Source: an uncultured Acidobacteriota bacterium (GTDB lineage: Bacteria > Acidobacteriota > Vicinamibacteria > Vicinamibacterales > 2-12-FULL-66-21). Taken from it: a DNA stretch of 64,000 nt. This document shows, in pieces, positions 7,977 through 63,525 of this stretch (within the stretch, counting starts at the first letter, position 1; every line of letters starts with the position of its first letter). A program made the position numbers and the translations under genes. The DNA lies in the NCBI GenBank assembly GCA_963804245.1, contig CAWDPQ010000019.1:70949-134948 (forward strand). Reading direction: 5' to 3'. Under the pieces are notes generated by a model, which ran no database searches, was not told the DNA's origin, and saw nothing but the letters and a program-made list of their open reading frames with translations.

Positions 7977-8020
7977 GAGCGCCGAGCGCCGAGCGCCGAG
8001 CGCCGAGCCCCGAGCCCCCC
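7977..8020. repeat. Tandem heptamer array (GAGCGCC)x4 degrading to GAGCCCC/GAGCCCCCC
   Basis: Read directly from the sequence. It lies 19 nt upstream of the DUF5916 start codon. A related array is at 63488-63525. Confidence 0.9.
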
Positions 8021-8185
8021 AGCCTCCGCTAGCCTCGGCGCGGCCAGGCTCGCCGAGCACACGCTGCGCGCTCGTCGCTCCGCATTCGCGCTCGCTCGGG
8101 CCGCAGGCGCTGGGCACGCCGGTTGAAGGAAGCGGCGGCACTCCTACGCAGGGAACACCCGTTCCGTTCGTGACGCGGTCCAGTC

Positions 8186-9350: not shown

Positions 9351-9736
9351 GTCTCAGTTCCGACCGTCTGCCGCGACTGAAATTCGAAGGCCGCCCACTT
9401 GCCAAGAGCTTTCAACGCTGAGTTCGCTGAGAACCGCAGAGACGACATGGATGATTAGTGGCGACCCAGGGCGGTCGCGCGGGGCGACCGCCCTCAGTGC
9501 TCGGTTAACCCCCGGTGTCTCTGCTCCTCGGCGTTCTCTGCGTTTCGGCTCTTTACAAGCGATGTCTTGAACATCAAAAGCTCCTTGTCTCCTTGTCTCC
9601 TGTCGGTTCCTGACAGGCGGAAGATGTTCGAACGCTGCCCCTGAGCCGCGAAGCCCCCCGACCTCTCGACCCGGCTTGGTGAATCCCGCGATTGCGAATA
9701 GAGTTGCGCGCGCAGCCATCGCCTCGGACCCACTCC

Positions 9737-12225: not shown

Positions 12226-12288
12226 GAGATCCGGAGGTCAGGAGTTAGTTTGGTTTTTCAAAAAAACTTCTCCTGATCTCCTGGTCTC
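12226..12288. terminator. Long imperfect hairpin (19-bp stem, 16/19 paired) with an AT-rich loop, built from CAGGAG / CTCCTG repeats
   Basis: GAGATCCGGAGGTCAGGAG (12226-12244) pairs with CTCCTGATCTCCTGGTCTC (12270-12288). The loop is ttagtttggtttttcaaaaaaactt. It sits between the lactonase stop and the SDR start. Confidence 0.55.
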
Positions 12289-12314
12289 CTGTTGAGAATC
12301 CTCCGGGTCTCCAG

Positions 12315-25109: not shown

Positions 25110-25187
25110 GATTGGACTAATTTAGGCTACGTTCTGTCGTCGGTGAACAAAAAACGACAATCCCTCCGCGGCGGAGGGGGCGGAGAT

Positions 25188-25522
25188 CACGGGACAAGCT
25201 TCAACACGGAGGCACGGGGGCACGGAGGATCGCGGCCCATTGGCGCGCCGTTCGCTTGTCAAAAGCATCAACGCATCAGAGCACGCAAAAGGCCGAGACG
25301 ACATGGGTAATTCGGGTAAACGGGGCTGGCGTGCGCCGACCTTGGTCGGCGTGGACCCTCACCGCGCGCAGCGCGGCACGCCAGCCACGCAGCCGCAACT
25401 AGCAGTCCCAGTCGTCTCTGCTCCCAGCGGTCTCCGCGTTGAAGCTTTTAGACAAGCGAAGATTGTGGGAATTGACTGGCTGCTCCGTGGCTCCGTGACT
25501 CCGTGTTAGAGCTTGTTCCGTG
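25188..25522. repeat. ~335-bp unit bounded by 41-bp imperfect inverted repeats (34/41) made of CACGGAG-type heptamers; MITE-like or a large RNA stem
   Basis: IR-L 25188-25228 is cacgggacaagcttcaacacggaggcacgggggcacggagg. The reverse complement of 25482-25522 is cacggaacaagctctaacacggagtcacggagccacggagc. The interior contains two further small hairpins (about 25334-25350 and 25362-25376). Confidence 0.65.
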
Positions 25523-33340: not shown

Positions 33341-33356
33341 TTGACACCTCCTCGAC

Positions 33357-33496
33357 ACGTGCTACGTGCTACGTGCTACGTGCTACGTGCCCCACGTGCA
33401 CCGGGCACTCGCACGTCGCACGTCGCACGTCGCACGTCGCACGTCGCACGTCGCACGTCGCACGTCGCACGTAGCACGTCGCACGTGCACGTGACA
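33357..33496. repeat. Inverted heptamer arrays: (ACGTGCT)x4 - 20-nt spacer - (GCACGTC)x9 with GCACGTA variant
   Basis: Read directly. The arms are complementary at 6 of 7 positions per unit. The array fills the whole gap between the haem-protein stop (33501) and the DUF1080 RBS. Confidence 0.9.
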
Positions 33497-43429: not shown

Positions 43430-43450
43430 GCACGTAGCACGTAGCACGTC
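43430..43450. repeat. Short heptamer array GCACGTA GCACGTA GCACGTC
   Basis: Same unit as the arrays at 33.4 and 50.5 kb. It lies between the hydrolase stop (43456) and the response-regulator start (43414). Confidence 0.85.
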
Positions 43451-43455
43451 GGCTC

Positions 43456-44676
43456 TTATATCCCACTATCCTCACCAAAGCTGAACGCAGGCTGAACGGC
43501 GGTGGGCGAAGGGTTTTGAAGTTCGTCTAGCGTCGAAGATTCCCCGACTGAGACGACGAACGCCAGCACTTCTCTGAGTACCTCATTTTCCTGGGTAATG
43601 AACAGGTAATGCCCGGCATTGGGGAGCCGAATGACGCGAGCGCCTTCGACACCTCGCTCGAACGCGGCCGCCTGGCGCTCTGTCATCCCCTGATCGAAGC
43701 GGGAGAAGGCGTCGAAGGCCGCCCGATGTTCTGGATACTTGTTGGTCCACGGGCCCAGACCATGAGGACTCGCAAAGATGGCGAGAGTCGGCACTCGGAT
43801 CTCGGTGAAGCGCTGTGAGCCTGCGCCGATCGCTTTCGACGCGGCAGCATGCGTCTTGCTCGGACCCACGCCGCCGGTCGAAGTGCTCGTGCGTACCTGC
43901 CGCAGTTCAGCCTCTGGAAGCGCGTAGCCGTGAACCCGCGACGACCACGCGCGGTACGCCGCAAAATCTGCGAGATCGGAAGGCTCCGCCGGCGGGGCGC
44001 CGCCTGGGAATTCGGGCGTGTTCATCAGCTCATTCAGGTCCTTCTGAAACTCGACCAGCGTCTCTCCGAGCGTCGTCCGTATGACCGTCGACAGCTCCGC
44101 CGGACTGCGTGGTGGTTTACCTAGTTCAGCATCGAGGAGCTCCAACTTGTTTTGTAGCTCCCGCAGATTCTCCCGGACGCCGGGTCGATAGTATGCGTAC
44201 CTGTATGCCGCATCGAGGTAGACGAGGCCAGCGAGACGGCCTGGATGTCGGGAAGCGACGAAGCTGAGCTCCTGGCCGGCGATCGAGTGCCCGATCAGCA
44301 CCGGCTTTTCGATGGACAGGTGGTCGAGCACGGCCAACACGTCTTTGCCCAGGCGATCGACGTCATATCCGGTCTCGGCCAGAGTCGAGGCGCCGTACCC
44401 GCGCCGGGTGATGCCGTAGATGTGGCCGTGGCTGGTCAGCTTGGTGGCGAACTCATCGAACACATGCGCCGTGTTTCCGAGTCCGGCGAGTAACACAATC
44501 GGTCGCCCTGTACCGCCCCAGTCGAGCACCTCGAGCTGCACGTTCTCGTCAACAGCGACCAGCCGGACACGGTGAGGCGATGGGTCGATCCATGACGGAC
44601 CTTGCTGCTCTCCCCCTGGGGTCGTCTGAAGTGCCACAAGCAAGGCGGCGAGATTGACGGCCGACCGAAAACACAT
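43456..44676 (-). CDS. Secreted alpha/beta-fold hydrolase with an inserted helical lid
   Basis: ORF 43456-44676. VLLAGLGNTAHVF, GHSIAG nucleophile elbow, and NAGHYLF near the C-terminus. Confidence 0.75.
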   Translation of the reverse strand: MCFRSAVNLAALLVALQTTPGGEQQGPSWIDPSPHRVRLVAVDENVQLEVLDWGGTGRPIVLLAGLGNTAHVFDEFATKLTSHGHIYGITRRGYGASTLAETGYDVDRLGKDVLAVLDHLSIEKPVLIGHSIAGQELSFVASRHPGRLAGLVYLDAAYRYAYYRPGVRENLRELQNKLELLDAELGKPPRSPAELSTVIRTTLGETLVEFQKDLNELMNTPEFPGGAPPAEPSDLADFAAYRAWSSRVHGYALPEAELRQVRTSTSTGGVGPSKTHAAASKAIGAGSQRFTEIRVPTLAIFASPHGLGPWTNKYPEHRAAFDAFSRFDQGMTERQAAAFERGVEGARVIRLPNAGHYLFITQENEVLREVLAFVVSVGESSTLDELQNPSPTAVQPAFSFGEDSGI

Positions 44677-47355: not shown

Positions 47356-50046
47356 TCATCCGCATCGCCCGTCGGGCGGGCAGGTAGCAGGCGAGGTCGC
47401 GACCAGCAGCAGTAGCAGAGGCACACCCGCGATTGTTGGCGGGTCGACGGTGCCGATTCCGTACAGCTCGGTGGCCAGGAGCGGCTGCAGGACGGCGGAC
47501 GCCGCCAGGCCGAGGATGACTCCCAGGACTGCAAGCCAGAGCCCCTGCAGCACGATGACGCGCAGGACGTGTGCCGGCTGGGCTCCCAGCGCCAGTCGGA
47601 TTCCAATCTCCGAGGTTCGCTCGCTGACGATGAGCTCCATGACGCCGAAGACGCCGACGGCGGCCATGATGAGGGCGAGGGCGCCGAAGGTGCCGACGAG
47701 CATGAGGATGAAGCGCCGTTGCGAGACGGATTCCGCGCGTACCTGCGTCATCGGCCGGACGTCGTAGGCGGCAATGTCCTTGTCCACGGCGCGCAGCGTC
47801 GAGCGCACTTCCGGAATCAAGATCGACGGCTCGGAGGTCGTGCGCAACACGATGAACGGATTCACCGGCGGATTCTGCAGGTAGTAGATGTAGGCCTCGG
47901 GTGACGGCGGCGCTTCCAGCCCACGATGTCTGACGTCGCCGATGATGCCGACGATCGTCGACCACGTGCCACCCGGGGCACCGAACTGCAGGCGCTTGCC
48001 GATCGGATCCTCGCCGCGAAACATCTGGCGCGCCATCGTTTCGTTGATCACGACCACGGGCGGCGCGGACGGGCCGTCATTCACGTCGAAGGAGCGGCCG
48101 CGCAGCACTCGAATACCCATCGCGCTGAAATAGTTGTGAACGGCGCGGCGGAACTCCACCTCGGGGAGATCGGCCGGGGCCAGGTTCCGGCCTTCGATCA
48201 CCACCTTTGTCGAGACGTTGGTGCTGCCGAGCGGAAGACGTGTGGTTCCTCCGACAGCGACGACCCCAGGGAGCGACTCGAGCCGGCTGAAGAGATTGGC
48301 ATAGAACGCCCGCCGGTGGTCGGGCGTAGCGTATCGCGGCGGCACGGTGATCTGCAGCGTCAGCAGGTTGTTCGGACGAAACCCCGGATCGACCGTGAGC
48401 ACCGACACGAAGCTGCGCAGGAGCAGGCTGGCACCGATGGTGAGCACCACGGCCAGTGCCACCTCCACAACGACGAGGCCGGCGCGCAAGCGGCGCTGCG
48501 CGCGGCTGACCGACGAACTGCGTCCCGACTCCTTCAACGCGGCCTGCACGTGCGAGCGCGATGCGGCGAATGCCGGAACGAGGCCGATCAGCGTGCCGGT
48601 GAGCAGCGAGAGGCCGAAGGTGAACGCGACCACCGCACCGCTGGGCGCCACTTCGTTGATTCGCGGAATCTCCGGCGGCGCGAGCGCGAGGAGGGCAGCA
48701 ATGCCGAGACGCATGAACACCAGCGCCGCGATGCCTCCGACGAGCGACAGCAGGATCGTTTCGACGAGGGTCTGCCGAACGAGGCGGCGGCGGGCGGCGC
48801 CGAGTGCGGAGCGGATGGCCATCTCCCGCTGCCGGCCGGTGCTGCGGGCGAGCAGCAGGTTGGCCAGGTTCACGCACGCCATCAGCAGCACGAACCCGAC
48901 GCCGGCGGTCAGGAGCAGCAACGCGGGACGGACGCTGCCAACCGTCTGCTCGTGCACGGGAACCACGTTCGCGCCGACAGCGCGGTTGGTGTCGGGAAAA
49001 GCCTCGGCCAGCTGCCGCGCGATGCCGGAAACCTCCGCCTGTGCCTGATCCACCGTCACGCCCGGCTTCAGACGTCCAACAGCCGCCAGGAAACGCGCTC
49101 CGCGCGAGAGCGTGGCCACACCCGTCACCCGCGAATCCTCTTGCACGAATGCCAGCGGCAGCCATGCATCCACCTGGAACGCCCGCGTAAATCCGCTCGG
49201 TCCGAGCATCGTCCGATAGGGAAACACGAAATCGGGCGGCATGACGCCGACGATGGTGCGGGGTTGAGACTGGATGTTGAGCACCCTGCCGATGACGTTC
49301 GGGTCGGCGCCAAGCCGGGACTGCCAGAATGCATGGCTGATCATCACGGCGGTGTTTTGATCAGTGTCCGTGAAGGTGCGGCCGAGCACGGGCTGACGTC
49401 CGAGCATCTCGAACGTGCCGGGTGTCACCACGCTGACGACGACCTGCTCCGCCCCGGCGCTGCCCGTCAACGTGGACGGAACGAGGAAGCCGTATGTCGC
49501 GTGTAGCCCGGAGAAGGCCGAAGCGGCCCGGAAATCGATGAAATCACGCGGCGCGACGGTGTCGCGATCGCGATGCTCCATCGCGTTGGTGCTCCACAGC
49601 ATCACCAGCCGGTCCGGATCGCTGTAGGGGAGCGGCTTCAAGAGCACCGCGTGGACGATCGTGAAGATCGCCGTGTTGGCGCCAATGCCGAGCGTCAGGG
49701 CGGCAACCGCCAACAGGGTAAAGACCGGATTGCGGGCGAAGATGCGCGAGGCGTAACGCGCATCGAACATGAGCGACTGCCACCACATTGGAGATCTCCC
49801 TCGAGGATCGTGAATCGAGCCTGAAGGTTCGGGCCAGAGAAATCGATCGCGGATCTGCGCGGCGTGCACGAGCGTGGCGTTCAGGAATACATCGACGACG
49901 CTGCGCAGGACACATGCGGCCACCGACCGCGGTCCGCGCGAGGCGGCCGCACTGACGCGCTCGGCCCACGCCTGTTCCATCGCAGCGCCGAAGCGGCGGC
50001 GGAACGACCGCGGGTAGGCACGCAGGAGCAGCCGGTAGAACCTCAC
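47356..50046 (-). CDS. ADOP-family ABC-transporter permease (PadR-associated); the last ~20 codons are scrambled by three 1-nt indels (corrected stop ~47329)
   Basis: ORF 47356-50046, 896 codons; the start overlaps the PadR stop (ATGA). The family-typical tail ..LACYLPARRAMR.DPVEALRA. is present but spread over three frames between 47400 and 47329. Confidence 0.85.
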   Translation of the reverse strand: MRFYRLLLRAYPRSFRRRFGAAMEQAWAERVSAAASRGPRSVAACVLRSVVDVFLNATLVHAAQIRDRFLWPEPSGSIHDPRGRSPMWWQSLMFDARYASRIFARNPVFTLLAVAALTLGIGANTAIFTIVHAVLLKPLPYSDPDRLVMLWSTNAMEHRDRDTVAPRDFIDFRAASAFSGLHATYGFLVPSTLTGSAGAEQVVVSVVTPGTFEMLGRQPVLGRTFTDTDQNTAVMISHAFWQSRLGADPNVIGRVLNIQSQPRTIVGVMPPDFVFPYRTMLGPSGFTRAFQVDAWLPLAFVQEDSRVTGVATLSRGARFLAAVGRLKPGVTVDQAQAEVSGIARQLAEAFPDTNRAVGANVVPVHEQTVGSVRPALLLLTAGVGFVLLMACVNLANLLLARSTGRQREMAIRSALGAARRRLVRQTLVETILLSLVGGIAALVFMRLGIAALLALAPPEIPRINEVAPSGAVVAFTFGLSLLTGTLIGLVPAFAASRSHVQAALKESGRSSSVSRAQRRLRAGLVVVEVALAVVLTIGASLLLRSFVSVLTVDPGFRPNNLLTLQITVPPRYATPDHRRAFYANLFSRLESLPGVVAVGGTTRLPLGSTNVSTKVVIEGRNLAPADLPEVEFRRAVHNYFSAMGIRVLRGRSFDVNDGPSAPPVVVINETMARQMFRGEDPIGKRLQFGAPGGTWSTIVGIIGDVRHRGLEAPPSPEAYIYYLQNPPVNPFIVLRTTSEPSILIPEVRSTLRAVDKDIAAYDVRPMTQVRAESVSQRRFILMLVGTFGALALIMAAVGVFGVMELIVSERTSEIGIRLALGAQPAHVLRVIVLQGLWLAVLGVILGLAASAVLQPLLATELYGIGTVDPPTIAGVPLLLLLVATSPATCPPDGRCG

Positions 50047-50411
50047 GCCGGCCCTCCGCGGAGCAGCCGGCGCGCACGGGCCGTGCTGAGCTGTCCGGCG
50101 AGGCGTTCGGCCTCGGCGCGGGCGACGGCCAGGCCGAGCGGCGTCAGCTGGTAGTAGCGCCGCCGCTGGTCGTCGACGTCGGGTGCCGGGCGATCGTCGA
50201 TTTCCTGAATCAGCCCCGAGTCGAGCAGCCGGCCGAGCGCGCGGTAGAGCGTGCCCGGGTGGAGGACGATCCGCCCTTCGCTGCGGCGTTCCACCTCCTG
50301 CATGATGCTGTAGCCGTGCTGATCTCCCGCCGCCAGCGCAATCAGGATCTCGAAAGCCACCGGGGTCAGCGGCAAGAAGCGTTCAACGTCGGCGGAAGAT
50401 CGGGGGCGCAT
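50043..50411 (-). CDS. PadR-family transcriptional regulator
   Basis: ORF 50043-50411. LIALAAGDQHGYSIMQEVERRSEGRIVLHPGTLYRALGRLLDSGLI winged helix. Confidence 0.9.
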   Translation of the reverse strand: MRPRSSADVERFLPLTPVAFEILIALAAGDQHGYSIMQEVERRSEGRIVLHPGTLYRALGRLLDSGLIQEIDDRPAPDVDDQRRRYYQLTPLGLAVARAEAERLAGQLSTARARRLLRGGPA

Positions 50412-50419
50412 CGGGTTTT

Positions 50420-50620
50420 TACGCTACGTGCTACGCGCTACGCGCTACGCGCTACGTGCTACGTGCTACGTGCTACGTGCTACGTGCAACGTGCTACATA
50501 CCACGTGCGACTGCCAGCAATAGCACGTAGCACCTCGCACGTTGCCGACGTAGCACGTAGCACGTAGCACGTAGCACATTGCACCTCGCACGTAGCCGAC
50601 TATACGCCTTGGGCGTATAG
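50420..50620. repeat. Large inverted heptamer arrays (GCTACGT/GCTACGC)x~11 and (AGCACGT)x~9, plus a 9-bp hairpin CTATACGCC-ttg-GGCGTATAG
   Basis: Left arm 50420-50510, right arm 50522-50597 (its reverse complement), hairpin 50600-50620. It occupies almost the whole divergent intergenic region between padR and the FMN dehydrogenase gene. Confidence 0.9.
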
Positions 50621-50665
50621 CGCTCAAGCTGGAAGTTGATAAATACTTGTCGTCCATGGTGGACA

Positions 50666-51868
50666 ATGCCTGACCTTTCACAGATGGTGAACATCGCGGA
50701 TCTCCGGCGTGCGGCCAAGCGGCGGCTGCCGCGAGCGGTATTCGACTACATTGATGGCGGCGCCGACGCCGAGTTCACACTGCACGAGAACTGCGCGGCG
50801 TTCGACCGGATCACGTTCAGGCCGCGGTGCGCCGTGGCGACGGCGTCATGCGACTTGCGGACGACCGTTCTGGGGAGTCCGATCGCTTTTCCGATAATTC
50901 TGGGTCCTGTCGGCAGCAGTCGAATGTTCTATCCGCGCGGCGAGGAAGAGGCGGCGCGCGCCGCCGGAGCTGCCGGCACGCTCTACACCCTCTCGACGCT
51001 CTCCGGGTGTAAGCTCGAGGACGTCCGCAAAGCGACGTCGGGACCCGCGTGGTATCAGGTCTACCTCTGTGGCGGACGGGACGTGGCGACCGGAACGATC
51101 GAGCGGGCGCGGCAGGTCGGCTATTCCGCGCTGGTCCTGACGATCGACACACCGGTGGCCGGTCTGCGCGAACGGGACGTGCGAAACGGGGTCAAGGAGC
51201 TGCTCGGGCGTCAGATCGCCGGAATCCCTCACGTCTGGCAATTTGCCTCGAAGCCGCTCTGGCTGGCCGCGTTTCTGCGCGACGGCGGCCTGATGAAGTT
51301 CCCGAACGTGGTGCTTCCCGACTCTGGACCGATGTTGTACGCGGACGTGGGCGCGGCGCTCGAGCAGTCGATGGTGACCTGGGACGATCTCCGCTGGATC
51401 CGGCAGATCTGGGATGGGCCGATCGTGGTCAAGGGCGTTCACATCGCCGAGGATGCCCGCCGCGCCGTCGGCGAGGGCGCCGACGCTATCGTCGTCTCGA
51501 ACCACGGCGGGCGGCAGCTCGACGGCGTACGGTCGACCATCGAGAGCCTGCCGGAGATCATCTCCGCGGTTGGCACGCGCACCGAAGTTCTGCTCGACGG
51601 GGGCATCCGCCGCGGCAGCGATGTCGTCAAAGCACTGACTCTTGGCGCCCGCGCCGTCATGATCGGGCGAGCCTATGCCTATGGCCTCGGCGCCGTCGGC
51701 GGGGCAGGGGTCACGCGCGCGCTGGAGATTCTGCGAGCCGACGTGGTCCGCACGATGAAGCTGCTCGGCTGCGGCTCGATCGCCGAGCTCAACGCTCCCA
51801 CATCGACATTCCGGCGGGCTGGCGGCACGGCGCGGACCGGCCAGCCCGTGGGAGAAAAATTCGCTTAG
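50666..51868 (+). CDS. FMN-dependent alpha-hydroxy-acid dehydrogenase/oxidase (L-lactate dehydrogenase / glycolate oxidase family)
   Basis: ORF 50636-51868; ATG 50666 is preferred (MPDLSQMVNIADLRRAAKRRLPRAVFDYIDGGA). SNHGGRQLD and GGIRRGSDVVKALTLGA motifs. Confidence 0.85.
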   Translation: MPDLSQMVNIADLRRAAKRRLPRAVFDYIDGGADAEFTLHENCAAFDRITFRPRCAVATASCDLRTTVLGSPIAFPIILGPVGSSRMFYPRGEEEAARAAGAAGTLYTLSTLSGCKLEDVRKATSGPAWYQVYLCGGRDVATGTIERARQVGYSALVLTIDTPVAGLRERDVRNGVKELLGRQIAGIPHVWQFASKPLWLAAFLRDGGLMKFPNVVLPDSGPMLYADVGAALEQSMVTWDDLRWIRQIWDGPIVVKGVHIAEDARRAVGEGADAIVVSNHGGRQLDGVRSTIESLPEIISAVGTRTEVLLDGGIRRGSDVVKALTLGARAVMIGRAYAYGLGAVGGAGVTRALEILRADVVRTMKLLGCGSIAELNAPTSTFRRAGGTARTGQPVGEKFA

Positions 51869-63275: not shown

Positions 63276-63487
63276 TGCTTTTTGACCTCTTTTGTCTTCT
63301 TTTTTCAGTGCGCTTGGGGCCCTCCGCCTCCGCGCGTCGATCATCCATCCGCGCTACGGCGAGACCTCGCCGTAGCTGGTCGCCCGCCTGTTCCGCGACC
63401 AGCGGAGGCGGGCACCCCCGCTCGCTCTCGCTCGGCGGCTACGCGCCTCGCTCGGGCCGCAGGCGCTTCTGTCTGCTCGGGCCCCCT

Positions 63488-63525
63488 GAGCCCCGAGCCC
63501 CCGAGCCCCCGAGCCCCCGAGCCCC
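63488..63525. repeat. Tandem octamer array GAGCCCC (GAGCCCCC)x3 GAGCCCC
   Basis: Read directly; it abuts the cupin stop codon (63527). It is preceded at 63447-63467 by CTCGCTCGGGCCGCAGGCGCT, which also occurs at 8091-8111. Confidence 0.9.

Follow-up and report, generated by a model that had tools for sequence, protein, structure and literature searches.

How a short non-coding spacer comes to hold two facing arrays of the same seven-nucleotide unit, and whether such arrays matter to the genes beside them, is the question raised by a locus in an uncultured Acidobacteriota bacterium (Vicinamibacterales lineage 2-12-FULL-66-21; assembly GCA_963804245.1, contig CAWDPQ010000019.1, positions 70,949 to 134,948 of the forward strand). 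In this stretch of 64,000 nucleotides, which we analyzed whole and call the window (64% G+C), units of GCTACGT and of its reverse complement lie between a gene for a PadR-family regulator, which is followed by an ADOP-type permease gene, and a divergent gene for a flavin mononucleotide (FMN)-dependent dehydrogenase. Here, we describe the anatomy and predicted folding of these arrays, follow their copy number among close relatives and across a dispersed family, and weigh the reading that they are one locus of a hypermutable heptanucleotide simple sequence repeat (SSR) family whose predicted leader hairpin probably alters padR–ADOP expression.

Facing heptamer arrays in the predicted padR leader

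By direct reading and with Tandem Repeats Finder, we located a left array with unit GCTACGT at positions 50423–50508 (period 7, 12.3 copies, 88% matches) and, facing it, an inverted array at 50521–50596 (period 7, 10.6 copies) whose unit, TAGCACG, is the reverse complement. Both are assigned to the minus strand, as is the unique central spacer between them (50509–50520, within ...ctacataccacgtgcgactgccagcaatagc...), which forms the loop of the dyad. On the plus strand the left array begins with one GCTACGT unit, continues with three of GCTACGC and five of GCTACGT, and then runs into degenerate units. In the sense of the padR mRNA it becomes (ACGUAGC)n, the arm proximal to the start codon, and ends 11 nt from the padR ATG, while the right array becomes the 5’ arm, (GCUACGU)n, and includes two GCGAGGU variant units. 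The element measures ~185 nt overall, and its best inverted-repeat arms extend over 49 nt with 88% complementarity.

A two-unit 14-mer, allowing up to two mismatches, matched the window 31 times against 0.28 matches expected from shuffled sequences (largest shuffle value 2). The head-to-tail 7-nt period of the padR arrays is therefore well beyond chance, and the facing inverted arrays reported in a preliminary description of this DNA are real. That description also placed the palindrome CACGTG at several unit junctions, which needs correction: ordinary junctions read TACGTG, and CACGTG occurs once in the padR element (50502–50507), close to the center of the dyad, and four times in the related element at 33.4 kb. 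Runs of identical variant units within arrays of the family, namely three successive GCTACGC and eight successive GCGACGT units, indicate local unit-by-unit amplification.

Searching positions 50300–50800 for sigma-70-like sites, we found a single one, against 0.2 expected, on the minus strand. This candidate padR promoter (50599–50627) consists of a −35 hexamer TTGAGC (50627–50622), a 17-nt spacer and a −10 hexamer TATAGT (50604–50599), and transcription from it is predicted to begin right where the arrays have their outer edge. Because the arrays are positioned between this predicted −10 box and the padR ATG, we place them in the predicted padR–ADOP leader and not in the promoter. The earlier view that they fill the divergent promoter region thus does not hold: a ~72-nt core with the promoter-like hexamers and a palindrome is intact in all strains that we compared, and the arrays lie downstream of it. 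The candidate promoter is likewise kept in all related contigs, where the −35 hexamer reads TTGTGC.

The palindrome is the separate perfect 9-bp hairpin that had already been remarked on. It reads CTATACGCC-TTG-GGCGTATAG (50600–50620), overlaps the −10 box and is kept in 11 of 11 related contigs, with or without arrays. We infer that this palindrome, which is outside the repeat family, is a better candidate PadR operator than the arrays. A 23-nt query containing it (TATACGCCCAAGGCGTATAGTCG) retrieved no further padR-leader allele from JGI metagenomes; the sole match was an unrelated locus, where the exact sequence stands at positions 851–873 of a JGI contig (L139) upstream of a different open reading frame (ORF) and may reflect a wider-used operator or a repeat. 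A terminator role was rejected, as no terminator-like site was found, and a scan of the whole window against Rfam 15 at the gathering threshold gave 0 matches.

The predicted leader RNA (50598 to 50382, minus strand) is predicted to fold as a single hairpin, long and imperfect, at −138.2 kcal/mol, compared with an average of −94.7 kcal/mol for shuffled sequences (z = −8.97). The hairpin would comprise ~80 bp, with its base ~12 nt from the padR AUG. Treated as single-stranded DNA, the region reaches −78.4 kcal/mol (z = −8.8), and the palindrome forms a separate small hairpin. A very stable hairpin, of the kind envisaged earlier, is thus predicted for the RNA and for single-stranded DNA.

The gene next to the start-codon-proximal arm, padR (50043–50411, minus strand), encodes a 122-aa protein (PF03551). 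A duplicated MacB_PCD/FtsX permease of the ADOP type follows on the same strand (47356–50046), and since its start overlaps the padR stop we presume that the two genes form one operon. On the other side, the FMN-dependent dehydrogenase gene (FMN_dh, PF01070; 50684–51868, plus strand) diverges from padR and starts 88 nt past the arrays. These identities come from Pfam matches on orthologous gene calls and agree with those first assigned.

Repeat number among close relatives

At least 22 contigs that come from other samples encode the identical PadR protein. We read the padR leader in eleven related contigs, ten with the identical PadR plus L134, which encodes a cluster relative of it. In the ten, the adjoining 3 kb match the window at 97.9–99.2% identity; the value for L134 is 91.8%. 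The array is absent from nine of the eleven (L119, L120, L122–L127 and L134), among them the two closest relatives by flank, L123 and L127 (99.17%). The array-less allele reads ...cttgtgcgCTATACGCCcaaGGCGTATAGtcgagagtaaaacgcgATG; the hexamers and the palindrome are intact in it, and the −10 box lies only ~15 nt from the ATG. By contrast, L121 carries a short allele of ~95 nt (~3.5 plus 4–5 units) at exactly the same insertion point and around the same central spacer. Comparison of filled and empty alleles revealed no target-site duplication at the junctions.

The remaining contig, L118, is garbled between positions 2310 and 2960. The central spacer and 2.5 terminal units remain, and the arms are replaced by ~650 nt of low-complexity sequence, first T-rich and then C/CT-rich. 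This looks like a failure of long-read basecalling or assembly over a long array, possibly owing to a hairpin or modified DNA, and we left the contig out of the allele count.

A second family element (33354–33492, minus strand) consists of about five GCTACGT units (33354–33390) facing a (GCACGTC)12.9 array (33405–33492), GCACGTC being the reverse complement of the unit variant GCGACGT. The element fills the spacer from the stop (33501) of a gene for a 1236-aa HEAT/DUF7133/cytochrome protein to the Shine-Dalgarno sequence and GTG start (33340) of a minus-strand DUF1080 gene of the 3-keto-disaccharide hydrolase family, and its four CACGTG sites lie at its ends or center. It folds at −105 kcal/mol, with a z of just −2.3. 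Six relatives, whose DUF1080 genes are 97.6–99.2% identical, have 2–4 units at this site and no inverted arm: (CTACGTG)2 in L131 and L135, (CGACGTG)2 in L132 and L136, about two units in L133 and about four in L137. The GCTACGT and GCGACGT variants segregate among strains. The window has 13 units and, in addition, five in an inverted arm that is new, so that such an arm can arise de novo beside a resident short array.

Copy number thus differs among close strains at two orthologous sites, a comparison that the preliminary description had proposed. The result is a clean natural series within a population at 98–99% identity: 0, ~95 or ~185 nt in one leader, and 2, about 4 or 13 plus 5 units at the second site. 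Read from these assembled alleles, repeat number changes greatly within a population that differs by ~1%: units, and entire inverted arms, are gained and lost, and the turnover of the elements is very fast.

The third family site is a single arm of 2.9 units (43430–43449, minus strand; Tandem Repeats Finder). It lies 6–7 nt after a −10-like TATAAG, 4 nt before a Shine-Dalgarno sequence GAAGG and 15 nt from the ATG (43414) of a gene for an OmpR-type response regulator, and it is nearly invariant in three other contigs (2.5–2.9 units). Each of the three window sites immediately precedes the start codon of a minus-strand gene. Upstream of the response regulator, an alpha/beta-hydrolase gene has its stop near the equivalent of 43526 in L128, and a 1-nt difference extends the window ORF to 43456; the extension (43456–43526) reflects a true frameshift or else an indel from sequencing.

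A dispersed family with a preferred orientation

Recurrence at 33.4 and 43.4 kb had suggested a dispersed family, and the suggestion proved right well beyond the window: three perfect GCTACGT units occur in at least 117 stretches of a species-representative genome collection, a lower bound on the abundance of the family. The matches listed, whose taxonomic spread is not quantitative, come mostly from Acidobacteriota metagenome-assembled genomes (MAGs), including Vicinamibacterales, and one Acidobacteriota MAG gives ~30 loci; also among the matches listed are Chloroflexota, Longimicrobiaceae, Patescibacteria, Sulfurovum, Streptomyces and others. Among 2.9 million viral contigs, a single one carries three perfect units, and we rejected a phage association on this ground.

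The same loci are crowded with other period-7 arrays, often as inverted pairs (TCGGGAC, CCGAATC, AGCTGAC, CCGGAAG and GGTTCGG). A census of arrays with 3.5 copies or more, with the GCTACGT family left out, covered 468 kb of loci from Acidobacteriota (a subset of L001–L117). It yielded 6 arrays of period 5, 18 of period 6, 74 of period 7, 4 of period 8 and 3 of period 9, so that even with GCTACGT removed period-7 arrays are ~4–18 times commoner than those of periods 5, 6 or 8. The GCTACGT arrays belong to the class of intergenic period-7 SSRs that is over-represented in many bacteria. Over-representation of period-7 repeats in bacterial intergenic DNA was reportedly noted in 1990, in work on cyanobacterial short tandemly repeated repetitive (STRR) sequences, the heptamers said to have been described by Mazel et al., and again in SSR surveys of 2007.

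Genes in L001–L117 were called with a crude finder based on third-codon-position G+C (GC3) and ORFs, which marks 86% of the window as coding. By these calls, ~2 of 140 family elements (L001–L117 plus the window) are truly intragenic, in keeping with the intergenic position expected of them, and the three window sites are likewise non-coding and dispersed alongside other period-7 units. The genes downstream of the arrays are functionally diverse: they encode an amidohydrolase, a Clp_N protein, a T2SSE ATPase, a decarboxylase with an Orn/DAP/Arg decarboxylase domain, LemA, a zf-HC2 protein, a cupin and one PadR. We therefore rejected a specific association with PadR/ADOP, for which the preliminary description had proposed a test. 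A second, unrelated PadR-family gene does have a hairpin element of the form ‘+ + −’ directly upstream (L089, 1035–1197, from Acidobacteriota MAG MFD04212.bin.1.190), and this may be coincidence, given the many PadR–ADOP pairs in these genomes.

Fifteen hairpin elements have central spacers that are unrelated in sequence and length, even within one genome. Two composite hairpins stand out by their build. In L113 (5601–5701), arms of (ACGTGCT)4 and (AGCACGT)4 enclose a loop that is itself a heptamer array, (CGCCCGT)5, and in L084 (1792–1962) the arms are nested mirror images, (GTGCTGG)5(GTGCTAC)6 ... (GTAGCAC)5(CCAGCAC)2. Such a pattern would be expected if one arm were copied from the other by inverted duplication.

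Of the arrays between co-directional genes, 45 read (ACGUAGC)n in the mRNA sense and 21 read (GCUACGU)n (p = 0.004). Among hairpin elements, 13 have the order 5’-(GCTACGT)n...(ACGTAGC)n-3’ and 2 have the reverse order (9 and 0 in Acidobacteriota alone), and because of this preferred arrangement the arm adjacent to the start codon reads (ACGUAGC)n. The biases of orientation and arrangement point to a constraint at the level of transcription or RNA. In the preferred sense, (ACGUAGC)n, arrays of the family have stop codons in all frames and no start codon. As a general rule this was rejected, since other heptamer families split 10 to 9 for stops and 6 to 8 for starts, and we do not use it to explain why orientation is biased.

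Reading frames have a practical consequence for annotation. All frames of (GCTACGT)n are free of stop codons, whereas every frame of its complement contains TAG. When arrays lie in one of the two orientations, ORF finders therefore read through them and report spurious ORFs or extended N termini, and gene callers can extend genes in the same way. Examples in the window are a 102-aa ORF at 50259–50567 (plus strand) and a GTG at 33358.

Several other repeats lie elsewhere in the window. A (GAGCGCC)5.6 array at 7977–8015 drifts into GAGCCCC, and a (GAGCCCC/GCCCCCGA) array of ~5.6 copies lies at 63481–63525. An exact 20-nt motif, ctcgctcgggccgcaggcgc, stands beside both (8091–8110 and 63447–63466) and suggests another dispersed element; alignment of the 7.98-kb and 63.5-kb repeats established no likeness beyond this one common 20-mer. 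Two mutually inverted 8-nt tandem repeats, (CACGGAGG)3 at 25205–25228 and (GCTCCGTG)3 at 25482–25505, are ~250 nt apart in a 410-nt gap without predicted genes (25110–25519) and have no Rfam match. Further 8-nt tandem repeats, (TCTCCTGA)3 at 12269–12291 and (CTCCTTGT)2.6 at 9581–9601, read on the minus strand as iterated AGGAGA, resembling a Shine-Dalgarno sequence.

Candidate explanations and known heptamer repeats

On balance, our judgment tips toward the reading that the padR arrays are one locus of a hypermutable heptanucleotide SSR family and that the predicted leader hairpin probably alters padR–ADOP expression. In such a mechanism, arrays would grow by strand slippage, and the inverted arm would come from fold-back or template switching, aided by the self-complementary ACGT/CACGTG core. 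Lying between the predicted −10 box and the ATG, the element would be transcribed as the padR–ADOP leader and would lengthen it from ~8 nt in array-less strains to ~190 nt in the window. The resulting ~80-bp duplex would be expected to alter translation initiation, or mRNA processing or stability, for example through RNase III, and allele length would then set padR–ADOP expression, by analogy with the heptamer-repeat leader hairpin of hmw in Haemophilus influenzae.

Several points weigh against this reading. The conserved promoter and the transcription start are consensus predictions, and crude GC3/ORF gene calls underlie the statistics on orientation. Going by their Flye-style names (contig_NNNN), the related contigs are presumed to be long-read assemblies, which may miscount repeat units. 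The array-less padR alleles hold no proto-repeat (tatagtcgagagtaaaacgcgATG), so that simple slippage in situ fails to explain the first origin of the array; one has to assume either that an ancestor with the array lost it completely or that some process inserted it. Finally, because most strains are without the array, any function that it has at the padR locus is dispensable.

Some of these points also favor a neutral by-product, an explanation that we regard as rather unlikely. Here too the arrays would be hypermutable heptamer SSRs, but as selectively irrelevant sequence that builds up where short non-coding spacers tolerate it and that has no meaningful effect on padR–ADOP expression. Absence from nine of eleven close relatives is what it would lead one to expect, as are the lack of a functional theme among downstream genes, the co-occurrence of many unrelated units in the same genomes and the failure of other heptamer families to follow the stop- or start-codon rule; the general excess of heptamers has itself been ascribed to polymerase slippage (cited in PMC4692102). 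The orientation bias and the 13:2 hairpin arrangement, however, are unexpected of neutral sequence, and a duplex of 80 bp at ~12 nt from the AUG, if it folds as modeled, would be unlikely to leave translation or RNA decay unaffected. In hmw, the sole experimentally tested system, the leader hairpin does matter (PMC12721329).

A bolder version of the hairpin reading would make the whole family an orientation-specific 5’-leader system of uncultured soil Acidobacteriota, sporadic in other phyla, in which transcription-coupled expansion, contraction and fold-back would give heritably different hairpins that act as contingency loci and are perhaps read by an RNA-binding protein or RNase III. We consider this quite unlikely. 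If true, it would extend the RNA-dependent SSR variation of hmw to a genome-wide scale and to free-living non-pathogens.

A binding-site array, in which the units are iterated sites for a putative DNA- or RNA-binding protein and the family is a regulon, seems to us very unlikely. In its favor, arrays lie within ~30 nt of start codons or −10 boxes at many loci and in a preferred orientation, and the 43.4-kb array (2.5–2.9 units) is nearly invariant in four strains. Read in mRNA, (UAGCACG)n is a UAG plus a 4-nt spacer, a spacing that we take to resemble that of HutP-type oligomeric RNA binders. Binders have also been proposed, although not found, for TAACTGA repeats (PMC4679880) and for Nostoc heptamers (bioRxiv 10.1101/2022.06.06.494920). 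A regulon fits poorly with near-identical strains that have anywhere between 0 and more than 12 copies at one locus, and dozens of unrelated heptamer units per genome would each need a binder of their own; no candidate protein was identified.

Transposition into the padR leader of a mobile fold-back element, of the type of miniature inverted-repeat transposable elements (MITEs) or of hairpin-forming doublets (REPINs) of repetitive extragenic palindromic (REP) sequences, with the arms as terminal inverted repeats, is highly improbable. It would account for the clean presence or absence at the padR site, the sharp boundaries, the empty alleles without a proto-repeat and the inverted arms around a unique spacer common to L121, L118 and the window. 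Against it, the padR junctions have no target-site duplication; hairpin spacers differ completely between copies, leaving no shared internal core; most family members are single arms, and arm lengths vary by whole units; the 33.4-kb element grew from a resident 2-unit array; and the viral contigs gave a single match. Two readings, lastly, are scarcely credible. An assembly artefact is suggested by the garbling that long-read assemblies such as L118 can show, but the same unit arrays recur in contigs with the MEGAHIT- or SPAdes-style names of short-read assemblies, in genomes of isolates and in one public sequencing run as assembled by Logan. A PadR operator array for autoregulation, a form of the PadR binding that the preliminary description had proposed to test, is suggested by ACGT-core repeats that adjoin padR, but nine of the eleven contigs encode the same or a near-identical PadR without the array, and the palindrome at the −10 box is invariant.

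Hypermutable heptamer repeats with a probable effect on expression, the reading that we favor, place the padR element among systems already known; what is new here is the unit, the phylum and the frequency of inverted arms, and our literature search found no report of heptamer arrays in Acidobacteria. Like REP/REPIN sequences and MITEs, the element is intergenic, has inverted arms that can form a long hairpin and is polymorphic for presence and absence. Unlike them, the GCTACGT family has neither target-site duplication nor conserved internal sequence, its arms are variable arrays of 7-nt units, and single arms are common.

The TAACTGA repeats of Beggiatoaceae, Cyanobacteria and Bacteroidetes precede start codons by a few nucleotides (PMC4679880), and in Nostoc the expression of recF and recO is influenced by heptamer repeats located close to start codons (bioRxiv 10.1101/2022.06.06.494920). 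With TAACTGA and the STRR heptamers, the GCTACGT arrays share a position close upstream of start codons, one preferred orientation, a unit common to distant phyla and the lack of a gene pattern. The TAACTGA unit differs, however, its sets are short (2–6 copies) and almost never inverted, and presence or absence between strains was not the focus of that work.

Closer still are the heptameric SSRs that are over-represented in the intergenic DNA of many bacteria, among them the GGGAATC arrays of Xanthomonas and the GGGGA(C/T)T arrays of Nostoc, whose length varies between close relatives and which sometimes form inverted pairs (PMC4692102). Those arrays and ours are dispersed, intergenic and of period 7, run from 2 to more than 20 units, vary in length and sequence, include occasional inverted pairs capable of forming stem-loops and show no theme among neighboring genes. 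Their units are G-rich and quadruplex-capable, whereas GCTACGT has no G-runs and a palindromic ACGT core, and the host here is Acidobacteriota, with scattered matches in other phyla.

For mechanism, the nearest parallel is the (ATCTTTC)n SSR of hmw1A and hmw2A in H. influenzae (PMC12721329; PMC8262952), which the preliminary description had aptly invoked. The hmw repeat is transcribed, forms a long hairpin in the 5’ untranslated region through which it acts, and is cut by RNase III; change in its repeat number requires transcription, folding and orientation, and the inverted SSR loses variation (PMC12721329). Both repeats have period 7 and lie between promoter and start codon, in a leader that is predicted in our case; both can form a long imperfect hairpin and vary in copy number between strains; and orientation matters in both, as a block on variation upon inversion in hmw and as a bias here. 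The expression effect and the RNase III processing are those of hmw, whereas for padR they would be properties of a predicted hairpin. The opposite arm of the hmw hairpin is a unique G-rich stretch, whereas that of the padR element is an inverted array of the same unit. Finally, hmw is a single virulence system in which at least 11 units are always present, while GCTACGT is a dispersed family before unrelated genes and its padR array is usually absent. If the leader hairpin does tune padR–ADOP expression, SSR-based heterogeneity of expression would reach beyond host-adapted pathogens and include bacteria that are abundant in soil.

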